From the IMG/VR virus record IMGVR_UViG_2925929528_000002, positions 1 through 47,716 of that record: a stretch of DNA of 47,716 nt. The stretch is one strand, 5' to 3'. This DNA comes from a virus (lineage: Duplodnaviria > Heunggongvirae > Uroviricota > Caudoviricetes). Within the stretch, counting starts at the first letter, position 1, and every line of letters starts with the position of its first letter. This document shows positions 33,001 through 36,000 of this stretch, one piece after another. The position numbers are program-made.

Positions 33001-36000
33001 AAGTGGATCAATTCTTCGCCATTCTTGAGAATGTAGAGTTCTTTACTCCCTTTATCATCAGTAGTGATATCAAGGGCATAAATATCAGGCTTGCATAGCG
33101 TAATGCCGCCTGTCGTAACTAGCGTCTTATTAACGAGGTGACTCATGGGGATACTCTCCGAACTGGATTCTTTACTGGAAAAAATCCCACTGTGGAAAAG
33201 GTTAAAAACAGTACCCGACGAAGTGGATCGTCTCAAACAGCAGGTCGCCGAGCTTGAGGCATACATCAAATCCAGCGGTGGGGAGAAATGCCCCAGATGC
33301 TCACAGATGAGTTATAGCCTTGACCGAACCGTAGATGACCCCGATTTCATTGGGTTGGGAGTTCAGAGAGACTATTACAAATGCTCCAGCTGTGGGTATG
33401 AAACCTTTAAACAGCGCTGAGATTGCAGAAATGACAAGGCCCAAGGGGATTAGCCTTGGGCCTTTAATTTTTTCCTGCTGCTCAGTTCGCTTTAACGTCC
33501 CGAGCCTATCACAATTCAAGCACTTTCCGCGCAACTATTCAAGTAAAATCTGTCGCAATTTGTGCCAAATGCGTCACACATTGGTGCGTAAAGCATCGAT
33601 TCTGCAAGATTTAACCAAACATCGATCCTGCTCTCACAAGTCCGCAAGCACCATTCTGGATGCTTTTCGTTTAGCTCTTTCGCCATCGCCTTCTTACTCA
33701 TGCGGTAGACATATCGATCCTTGATTAACTTATAGAGAGCTTTATTCCCGGAACGCACAAGCTGAGCACTAAGCACAGAATCAATTATCAATCCTTCCTC
33801 GTCAGTACAAAAAGCCAGGCCGCTTTTATTTTTACCACTGAGGATTTCCTTAAAGAACGCTTCCAGCTCTGGCTTGGTAATGCCTGATTTTTTCATACGG
33901 CGCAAAGCATCGTTTATAGCGGTCTTCGTTATCTTCCCTGACGCCAACAGCTGATTGAACATATTTCCACCACTACCGCCGCCGATGTAGGACCAACGGC
34001 CCCACATGCGCAGCTTCCCTTGAATCCAGATGGCCTCAAGCGTTTTCAGCCTGACCATTTCACCAGCTTTTCCAACCTCGGACGGGTTAATCATTATGCG
34101 TTCTCCACTATGCCAGCACGCCAATTGCCAGCGAACGATCCAGAAATCGAAACAGCAGCTCCAGCTGTGAGCCGTGCTTCTCCTCAAATACCACGGTGTC
34201 AGCGTGCAACTCGTCGTGATGCGCTCTGCAAAGCGGCAACACAAACAAATCGTGCGCTTTCGTTCCCATTCCACCTTGTCCGTGGCCTATCAGGTGATGG
34301 GGATCATCTGCTTGTTTGTTACAGCAGACACACTGCTGAGACTTAACCCAGCGCGTCCAGCTCTCGTTTACCCAGCGGCGGCGCTTTGGTCGCAGCATGA
34401 ATGATTCCGGCGTTTCAGGATCTACGCGAAGACCGAGAATCTTTTTCTGCACCACTTCGCTCGCCGCTGGCTCCGGCACAATATCGCTCTCCTTCATCAC
34501 TGGTTGATGCTTTATTTCCGGCAATCGCAGGGCTTTACGGGCCAGCGATTCAGGGATTACGTGCGCCAGATTGTTTATCACCAACCACCAGCACAACTCT
34601 GGGATCGTCAGTTGATGGTCTTCGTTGAACCCCAGCTGTGAGCGGATGACCGTTATCAGCCAGGATACCAGGTTCTCACGCGCAATGCCTGCCAGCGTCT
34701 CTGTGTACTGATCACGCAGCAGGTTATCGCAGGCCCAGCAAAGGCGGATGCTGCCAGGCTCATGCCGGAACAGCGTAAAATTTTCGCTGTGCCATGAGCC
34801 GTGGGGATACTGGCATTCAAAACGACGCTCCAGCTCGGCTTCCAGCGAGCTGATACCACCCGCGCGCAGAATGACGTCTTTGTTTTCGAAGACTGCCTTC
34901 AAAACCGGGTCTTCTGCCAGTGGCTGCGTGGCGGGAGGGATAGCGCCAGTTGCGTAGTCGCTGTATTTTTCCGGTGCAGGCTCAATCAGTACCCGCCCTC
35001 TCCTGAACATCGGCATGAGATCAGCACCTGGGCGAAGAAGAACAACGCCCATGCGTGGGGCAACCTCAGGGGTTAGTAGTGCTCTCATATCATCTCCACG
35101 TCAGGCAACTGCACGAAAACGTCGGATGGTGATTTCTACTTTCCCTTTCTTCACGATGTTCCCCCACTCCACCAGCATGCGCTTAACCTGACTGTCGTCT
35201 TCCCAAACGCCTGTTAGTGTCAGGGCATCGAACAGCGCTTTGTTGTAGTTATCGATATCCCGACGGCGCTGATCCGGCGGATACAACACTATGTGAACCT
35301 CAGCCAGATCAGAGGATGGACGGGGAACGGCACGCAGTTGCTCAATAATCGCCGCTCTCGCTGCCTGCTGGAACTTGCGCCCTGTCTCGCTTACCAGATG
35401 CCTGCCTTTCAGCGGTCCCTTGCTCGGGGCGCGCCAGTAACTATTTACGCGCGGTGGAAATGGTAAAGTCAGTTTCATTTAGCCCCCTTAAAGGATCGCT
35501 ACAACGTCTTTTGCGACTTCCCGCGTACTGCTTTTGCAGGAGATCGAACGGCGCGCTTTGATGAATTGCAGGTTAAAACCATGCTCCCGGTACAGGTCGA
35601 GAACCTTCGTTGCAGATGAGTTAGAAATCACTACCCGAGCGCCACGGTGAAAGGCAGATACACATTGCTTCGCCAGGTCCACTTGGTTATCCCAGCTAAA
35701 ACCACCAGCGGCGTAGGCGGTGAATCCGGTTGTTCCCGGCATCGGTTCGTAAGGCGGATCGCAGTAAACCACATCCCCTTTACCGGCCAGGCTGATTGTC
35801 CGGCGGTAATCAGCGGTCATGAATACGCAGTTATGCGCCATACCCGCGAAGGCTTTCATCTCATCCATCGGGTAATACGGGGCCTTGTAGCCTCCCCAAC
35901 CCACATTGAACTTGTTCGCCTGGTTGTAGCGCATCAGGCCATTGAAGCAATGCCGGTTGAGATACAGGAAAGCAGCTGCGCGTTCAGTAGCATCCAGCGT

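Follow-up and report, generated by a model that had tools for sequence, protein, structure and literature searches.

Does a pair of small open reading frames (ORFs) that diverge from a single CATG, between the antiterminator gene Q and the late-operon leader of a prophage, contain one gene or two, and, if two, what does the shared start imply for their expression? The question is raised by a locus in IMG/VR virus record IMGVR_UViG_2925929528_000002 (Caudoviricetes), of which positions 1 to 47,716 were analysed as one stretch (hereafter, the window). The plus-strand ORF is here called A and the minus-strand ORF B. An earlier sequence-only reading of the window had described both, each with a ribosome-binding site, and considered that at most one was likely to be real. 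Both ORFs and both ribosome-binding sites are present as described, but comparative analyses indicate that both ORFs are real protein-coding genes: the pair is conserved, both members are under purifying selection, and their Shine-Dalgarno (SD) sequences are fixed at synonymous sites. The features of the pair are as follows.

33145-33420, plus strand: gene A, 91 amino acids (aa; MGILSEL...CPRC...CSSCGY...KQR)
33146..32949, minus strand: gene B, 65 aa
33144-33147: CATG containing both start codons (A ATG, 33145-33147, plus strand; B ATG, 33146..33144, minus strand)
33135-33138, plus strand: SD sequence of A, GAGG, 6 nt before its ATG and within B codons 3-4
33159..33154, minus strand: SD sequence of B, GGAGAG, 7 nt before its ATG and within A codons 4-5 (CTC TCC)

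The two genes overlap by 2 nt, with their start codons head to head, and the ribosome-binding site of each sits in the first five codons of its partner. Divergent overlaps are very rare, accounting for two of the 663 E. coli pairs of neighbouring genes that overlap (PMC4161906). Full-text literature searches for this architecture or for the protein family found nothing. Leaderless translation from the shared CATG was considered and rejected, given the conservation of both SD sequences and the lack of a suitably spaced -10 element.

Evidence that both ORFs are protein-coding

An exhaustive profile search assigned 467 cluster representatives to the A family at E<=1e-3, nearly all of them 85-100 aa long. 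Homologues at 50-99% identity form 17 clusters, from Klebsiella, Photorhabdus, Xenorhabdus, Morganella, Arsenophonus, Salmonella, Ewingella, Achromobacter, and Chromobacterium. B alone as a query gave three matches only. When the opposite strand was read at every A locus, a B ORF of 64-78 aa was found to start from the same CATG in all Enterobacterales, Achromobacter, and Chromobacterium loci, and a profile built from these ORFs recovered 11 clusters. A few B homologues carry C-terminal extensions (105-142 aa), and B homologues were found solely as the head-to-head partner of A. From Klebsiella to Achromobacter, B identity is 25-78% and the reading frame is kept open. The A protein is found in identical form on 460 contigs, and the B protein on 199; both occur mainly in Klebsiella pneumoniae assemblies, which make up most of the named contigs carrying A.

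Conservation and codon-substitution pattern, two of the checks that the sequence-only reading had proposed, speak for both ORFs: each is conserved across orders and classes of Proteobacteria, with the proportion of nonsynonymous differences (pN) far below that of synonymous differences (pS). In pairwise Nei-Gojobori counts, pN is 0.19-0.36 against a pS of 0.70-1.0 for A, and 0.25-0.62 against 0.55-0.87 for B. In closely related pairs, the ratio of nonsynonymous to synonymous substitution rates is 0.13-0.14 for A and 0.12 for B, and at the protein level B evolves roughly twice as quickly as A. Translation of both genes is independently supported by the SD sequences: each is fixed at synonymous sites of the partner, so that selection preserves both ribosome-binding sites. 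In the codon alignment, A codons 4-5 read CTC-TCC or CTC-TCA in nine of nine diverged loci, while the other leucine codons of A vary freely among these loci; the reverse complement of codons 4-5 is the B SD, GGAGAG. Similarly, leucine codon 4 of B, which supplies the A SD GAGG, is CTC in all seven diverged Enterobacterales sequences.

It is therefore very improbable that one ORF only is a gene and the other a chance frame on the opposite strand. Such a view could draw on the lack of any Pfam, PHROG, or NCBIfam match for B, and on the fact that RefSeq/PGAP annotates neither ORF in two cassette-bearing E. coli genomes. However, the ORFs have only two nucleotides in common, so neither can be a by-product or shadow of the other; pN is below pS in a B frame that persists from Klebsiella to Achromobacter, homologues of A number in the hundreds, and both SD sequences are fixed at synonymous sites. 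The two unannotated E. coli loci (L001, MIN9, 3001-3621; L002, NCTC9040, 3001-3571; loci outside the window are given L-numbers) each leave a gap of approximately 1.1-1.3 kb between holin and Q. GenBank submitters label both A and B "hypothetical protein" (e.g. AVI89040.1 and AVI89041.1).

A 479-bp cassette without flanking non-coding DNA

Comparison with related phages that lack A and B defines the insert and the resident sequence next to it.

32942-33420: inserted cassette of 479 bp, comprising the two ORFs and 7 nt beyond the B stop codon
33436-33473: resident Q-distal hairpin (11-bp stem, 7-nt loop) and T-tract, the latter on the plus strand

On the left, homology to ST11-VIM1phi8.2 (the late promoter/leader side) ends at ...GATGCAATGCA, window position 32941. 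On the right, homology to ST147-VIM1phi7.2 and KpF5 (the Q side) resumes at GATTGCAGAAA, position 33421, which is the first base after the TGA stop codon of A. Alignment with the cassette-free Klebsiella phages thus leaves no intergenic or flanking non-coding DNA within the insert, and no terminal repeats or target duplications were found at its ends. An insertion at the junction between Q and the lysis genes, as the sequence-only reading had proposed, is borne out by ST147-VIM1phi7.2 and KpF5. These two phages share Q with the window, along with the hairpin and T-tract right after it; they lack A and B and carry other cargo at the site (an annotated tRNA-Thr in KpF5, and a tRNA identified by Rfam in ST147-VIM1phi7.2). 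ST11-VIM1phi8.2 has the same late promoter and leader with a different Q and no cassette, and a related hairpin abuts its promoter region.

A had also been credited with a terminator of its own. The perfect hairpin does exist: 11 pairs at 33436-33464 are followed by TAATTTTTT on the plus strand, and the RNA fold z is -3.6 for the plus and -5.4 for the minus strand. However, it does not belong to the cassette, since cassette-free relatives carry the same hairpin directly after Q. Judged from these alignments, the hairpin can terminate A but predates the cassette, and A uses a pre-existing terminator. A candidate terminator after B (32964..32948) was rejected, as its fold (z 0.31) is no better than that of shuffled sequence. 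In ST11-VIM1phi8.2 (L039), the hairpin downstream of Q (2579-2655, minus strand) scores as the Rfam small RNA (sRNA) isrJ with 63 bits; the window hairpin is in the equivalent position and falls below every Rfam threshold. In some of these phages, an IsrJ-like sRNA may arise from the Q 3' region.

A consensus promoter scan of the cassette found none, and a position-weight scan of nine orthologues gave weak, partly recurring sites, none conserved enough to claim. Among the candidates set aside were a TTTCCA-N18-TAAACT-like sequence approximately 22 nt before the B ATG and TTGAGA-N17-TACTGT in the window (33236..33208, minus strand), both insufficiently conserved; TATGAT/TATAAT 76 nt before the A ATG, found at four loci and absent from the window; and TTAACA-N15-TACAAT (32878-32904, plus strand), which lies outside the cassette.

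Insertion sites and orientation

The head-to-head pair is conserved in Gamma- and Betaproteobacteria, with loci in Klebsiella, Morganella, Xenorhabdus, Photorhabdus, Arsenophonus, Ewingella, Salmonella, Achromobacter, and Chromobacterium, as well as in further prophages from metagenomes. Among the pairs examined, the CATG is shared in all Enterobacterales, Achromobacter, and Chromobacterium loci and additionally in L044 and L064, while two distant pairs vary in start geometry, with a 1-nt gap (L045) or an 8-nt overlap (L065). The cassette is present in two of 5426 complete E. coli genomes (MIN9 and NCTC9040). The suggestion that the site is a moron hotspot is supported by NCTC9040, in which the cassette lies there behind a differently annotated Q and between diverged flanks; it was also found behind Q genes of other Pfam families.

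The cassette occupies several kinds of site. It lies between Q and the late promoter in the window and in E. coli, between Q and holin in Morganella and in viral contig L022 (which encodes Photorhabdus-like proteins), and next to the holin gene in Xenorhabdus. In Salmonella it comes just after the STnc100 leader and adjoins hicAB. It is between the lysis genes and terminase in Ewingella and L052, upstream of the terminase genes in Chromobacterium, among tail-type genes in L064 and L065, and between cro and cII in Achromobacter and L044. Accessory or defence-type neighbours include hicAB in Salmonella, and a Schlafen-like ATPase and reverse transcriptases at Achromobacter loci. The Salmonella enterica copy (L033, 2362-2569; L034, 5299-5506) is downstream of the leader and within the Q-dependent late transcript, sandwiched between the hicAB pair and an extra HicB-like gene. 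Searches with tblastn gave no match for A, B, or two distant A relatives among 50,697 isolated phage records, and none for A among 72,556 plasmids, so that all of the evidence comes from prophages and viral contigs.

Across these sites, orientation is constant: in 13 of 13 contexts B is read with the surrounding lytic genes and A is opposed to them. In the window, a lambdoid prophage of Klebsiella type, the cassette is located between the hairpin that follows Q and the late promoter/leader, with A on the strand of cI and integrase and B on the minus strand with the lytic genes. The setting is as follows.

44455-45441, plus strand: integrase
38451-39146, plus strand: cI-type repressor (helix-turn-helix and Peptidase_S24)
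37615-38145, minus strand: cII, with a replication-region gene on the same lytic strand
35488-36297, minus strand: Dam methylase
35101-35478, minus strand: RusA
34108-35088, minus strand: DUF968 gene
approximately 33516-34094, minus strand: antiterminator Q (Pfam matches DUF1133/Phage_antitermQ), upstream of the cassette in the lytic direction
32896..32692, minus strand: late-operon leader, a full-length match to Rfam STnc100 (83.2 bits, E 2e-16)
late side of the cassette, in the minus-strand lytic set: holin gene
30945-31484, minus strand: endolysin
25555-27687, minus strand: terminase

The extent of Q was taken from the RefSeq annotation of the E. coli MIN9 prophage (98.7% identical), and the STnc100 leader follows the cassette directly in the lytic direction. 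Two further ORFs, 33335-33724 (plus strand, 129 aa) and 33301-33534 (minus strand, 77 aa), were treated as spurious because they overlap the 3' end of A, the hairpin, and the 3' end of Q, and span the cassette boundary and a conserved gene. Between the late leader and the holin gene lies a very AT-rich island (31990-32600; GC content 0.25-0.33 against approximately 0.5 around it), and within it a 39-aa ORF (32273-32392, plus strand) that is antisense to the late genes, strongly hydrophobic, and has a basic tail (MSNLLMLALAIALLLISIGFLVSYIRDRKKYKNTFKNRR). This ORF could be a further small moron, or it could encode a peptide resembling type I toxins.

The A and B proteins

The sequence-only description of A as a coiled coil followed by a zinc ribbon matches structure prediction. 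The AlphaFold model of A (mean predicted local distance difference test score, pLDDT, 83.5) has a helix at residues 3-11, a break at an I-P-x-W-K-R motif (IPLWKRL in the window), a long coiled-coil-like helix at residues 15-43, and a three-stranded C4 zinc ribbon at the C-terminus (C49-P-x-C52 ... C80-x-x-C83). The four cysteines are invariant in 51 diverse members, and the tryptophan and a P...L..R...LE helix pattern are also invariant or nearly so. The model of B (mean pLDDT 76.5) has five beta strands and a C-terminal helix, and B gave no meaningful fold or sequence match. A is near neutral (isoelectric point, pI, 5.4-8.4), while B is acidic (pI 4.5-5.2; 4.9 in the window). Grand average of hydropathy values of A and B proteins range from -0.72 to +0.31; neither is hydrophobic overall, and both therefore look cytoplasmic.

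Known zinc ribbons resemble A only in part. NrdR, TFIIS/TFS/Rpa12, and IS1595 transposases share with A the three-stranded C4 ribbon with CPxC...CxxC, but A lacks the ATP-cone of NrdR. The acidic hairpin of TFIIS is not conserved in the A family; a TFIIS-like acidic loop (RSADE-type) was considered and rejected, as the corresponding R-T-x-x-D-P occurs in the close clade only and the loop is variable across the family. The match of A to TFS_arch (E 0.081, 13.6 bits) is far from the cut-off of 64.75. The IS1595 transposase ribbon (PF12760) gives 19.4 bits against a cut-off of 25.4, and A has no transposase domain. No PF01258 (DksA/TraR) match was found at E<=0.1, and the two-helix antiparallel coiled coil of those proteins differs from the single long helix and beta ribbon of the A model. 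In PADLOC-DB v2, A had only spurious ribbon matches to Cas12a (E ~0.005-0.009) and B had none. What distinguishes A from known ribbons is the N-terminal L-L-x-K-I-P-x-W-K-R helix followed by the coiled coil.

Two database labels touch on A. One homologue is named "TFIIS-type domain-containing protein" in UniRef. Additionally, positions 1-68 of the 205-position profile PHROG 8828 ("HNH endonuclease") match A with E 7.7e-17, and A ends there. One A relative (P0087, 213 aa) has a C-terminal extension with no Pfam domain. Together, the partial profile match and this extension show that in some proteins further domains are attached to the A module, and the module itself may not merit the "HNH" label.

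A genes without B, and decayed copies

Among the more distant A homologues examined, approximately half lack B, and several of these partner-less genes lie in immunity regions. Some are directly upstream of, and co-oriented with, a repressor gene: a CI-type repressor at L041/L042 (Phage_CI_repr above threshold), a repressor with HTH_3 and Peptidase_S24 at L050, and, weakly, one at L049. In a Chitinophagaceae prophage, A is downstream of a repressor-like gene and a lipoprotein gene (assigned by eye only), and at L066 and L067 it is antisense within cro-side early genes. Placement in the A family is thus typically like that of genes expressed from a repressed prophage, as far as gene order can indicate.

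Decayed copies were found among the paired loci. In Raoultella ornithinolytica (L021/L023, 3997-4000), CAGG replaces CATG, so that one T-to-G change removes both starts, while both reading frames are otherwise intact. At L052 (4001-4261), A has an in-frame TGA at codon 32 and B is intact. In Trabulsiella guamensis (L031, 1030-1310), fusion to an STnc100-like leader truncates A after codon 24, the A remnant is flanked by two STnc100 copies, and B is again intact. The reverse, a broken B with an intact A, was not seen among the loci examined, although the numbers are small. Loss of A with retention of B, seen independently in two lineages, fits A as the costly partner, with the same reservation as to numbers.

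A possible reciprocal switch and its alternatives

Because the cassette has no intergenic DNA, each mRNA must start inside or beyond the coding region of the partner, and the geometry of the overlap makes the 5' ends exactly complementary over both SD sequences and both start codons. With complementary 5' ends and polymerases meeting head-on, reciprocal expression is the simplest expected consequence, and the shared CATG probably lets only one of the two genes be made at a time. The orientation rule, together with the cI-side placement of A relatives, leads to the proposal that A belongs to the lysogen and B to the lytic state. The locus is a compact, horizontally mobile two-gene accessory cassette, which we tentatively read, with a probability of roughly 0.4, as a reciprocal antisense toggle in which A would be made by the lysogen and B, made in the lytic state, would be its off-switch or antidote.

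In such a toggle, A would be made in the quiescent lysogen, as cI is. Strong lytic transcription across the cassette would then make the B mRNA and silence A by antisense pairing and collision; its source would be the early operon, by read-through from the Q side, in the phage of the window and the late operon in other phages, and in Salmonella the sweeping transcription would be the Q-dependent late transcript. The B protein would neutralise remaining A, so that lytic growth of the resident phage could escape it. As to what A does, the least certain step, a best guess is that it would be a soluble coiled-coil/zinc-ribbon effector of the lysogen in phage-phage conflict. Prophage genes so placed and oriented most often act in phage-versus-phage conflict, and the guess draws on the placement and orientation of A and on neighbours such as hicAB, the Schlafen-like ATPase, and the reverse transcriptases. 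More doubtful is the extension that A and B form an undescribed, self-contained "state-sensing" module, in which a lysogen-only zinc-ribbon effector and a lytic-only antidote could be inserted into any lytic operon with no promoter or terminator of their own.

Several observations weigh against the toggle. No convincing, positionally conserved sigma-70 promoter for A or B was found inside the cassette, and expression of A in lysogens is accordingly proposed from orientation and relatives. One distant relative (L069) has A opposite to the cI strand. Many A genes have no B, and some of these are antisense in lytic operons (L066 and L067), which argues that B is not generally needed to tolerate A. 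The 13 contexts are not all phylogenetically independent, though their neighbours are unrelated. Finally, A matches no defence, toxin, or regulator family in Pfam, PHROG, NCBIfam, or PADLOC-DB v2, and its fold matches only generic zinc ribbons (NrdR and TFIIS/Rpa12, E ~0.03).

The main rival, which we consider unlikely, is that A and B regulate the development of the prophage itself, with A binding RNA polymerase, Q, or nucleic acid and B as its anti-factor. This would be a small auxiliary lysis-lysogeny switch built on face-to-face transcription in the manner of P2 Pe/Pc or 186 pR/pL, with A damping early or late transcription or induction. The best fold matches of A, to the DNA-binding ribbon of NrdR and the polymerase-binding ribbons of the TFIIS/Rpa12 type, would suit such a role, as would the TFIIS-type label in UniRef, the frequent location of cassettes at regulatory junctions (Q to late promoter, after the leader, cro to cII), and the partner-less A genes that adjoin cI. 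However, those matches are weak, A is not basic, and the acidic TFIIS hairpin varies within the family; moreover, the cassette also sits beside terminase or tail genes and behind unrelated Q families, which makes a site-specific regulator unlikely.

Two further explanations appear improbable, and to a similar degree. A toxin-antitoxin-like addiction module, stabilising the prophage whether in the lytic or the lysogenic state, would account for the strict co-occurrence of the two small genes within a clade, for the faster evolution of the putative neutraliser B, for the loss of A with B retained but never the reverse, and for the single Raoultella mutation that removes both starts at once; the Salmonella copy also adjoins hicAB. 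Yet A and B are divergent rather than co-transcribed, neither matches a toxin-antitoxin or defence model (Pfam, NCBIfam, PADLOC), the many lineages with A and no B indicate that A is not intrinsically lethal, and plain addiction leaves the 13/13 orientation rule unexplained. That rule, which points to coupling with lytic transcription, also counts against a co-expressed two-subunit effector in which the overlap is mere extreme compaction with no regulatory meaning. Strict co-occurrence, joint transfer as one 479-bp unit, and scans from which no promoter could be assigned are compatible with such an effector, but with 5' ends that are complementary over both ribosome-binding sites the two are unlikely to be translated efficiently at the same time, many phages have a functioning A and no B, and the overlap has been held within a few nucleotides across bacterial classes while divergent overlaps are nearly absent from genomes.

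Comparison with known systems

Lambdoid morons are well known at the junction between Q and the lysis genes, where stx genes or tRNA genes, for instance, lie downstream of Q. The A/B cassette is likewise an extra at this hot spot, absent from near-identical phages and mobile between differing flanks. A classical moron, however, carries its own promoter and its own terminator, whereas the cassette consists of two abutting ORFs with no flanking promoter or terminator of its own and is not tied to the Q-lysis junction.

The regulatory arrangement has counterparts elsewhere. In the P2 Pe/Pc and 186 pR/pL switches, face-to-face promoters drive divergent lysogenic and lytic genes with overlapping 5' transcripts and transcriptional interference. 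A and B are similarly divergent genes on the lysogenic and lytic strands, and their geometry would force the transcripts to overlap at the 5' ends. In P2 and 186, however, it is an intergenic control region that contains the overlap, and helix-turn-helix repressors are encoded, in contrast to abutting coding regions that share a CATG and specify a zinc-ribbon protein and a beta-rich protein that is small and acidic. The mechanism proposed for A/B, control by complementary 5' ends, is also the arrangement of type I toxin-antitoxin pairs such as tisB/istR-1 and shoB/ohsC, which have divergent, 5'-overlapping transcripts. In those pairs a small membrane peptide acts as the toxin and its partner is non-coding RNA, whereas both A and B are conserved and predicted to be soluble proteins. 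Type II toxin-antitoxin systems are adjacent co-transcribed pairs in which at least one gene belongs to a known toxin or antitoxin superfamily, a description that A and B do not fit.

Exclusion genes expressed by lysogens with self-protection include lambda rexAB in the cI operon, P22 sieB/esc, and BstA with its aba element. A relatives are likewise found in or beside cI operons, and by analogy the logic proposed here would be the same, namely an effector together with something that protects the resident phage from it. In sequence and fold A/B is unrelated to these systems, and A and B have no apparent membrane segments.

What had been a doubtful single small ORF thus becomes two uncharacterised protein families, neither of them in Pfam. 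A single CATG shared by two divergent genes, and conserved as such, is a very rare arrangement, and it imposes a clear, testable regulatory logic. If expression is indeed reciprocal, the locus would show how a cassette with neither promoter nor terminator obtains correct expression wherever it lands, and it would suggest a new effector, expressed in lysogens and accompanied by its antidote. If A and B form a state-sensing module, A would represent a new family of anti-phage or host-modifying proteins with hundreds of members. The locus adds an unusual and deeply conserved start-codon-sharing architecture to the accessory cassettes of prophages.

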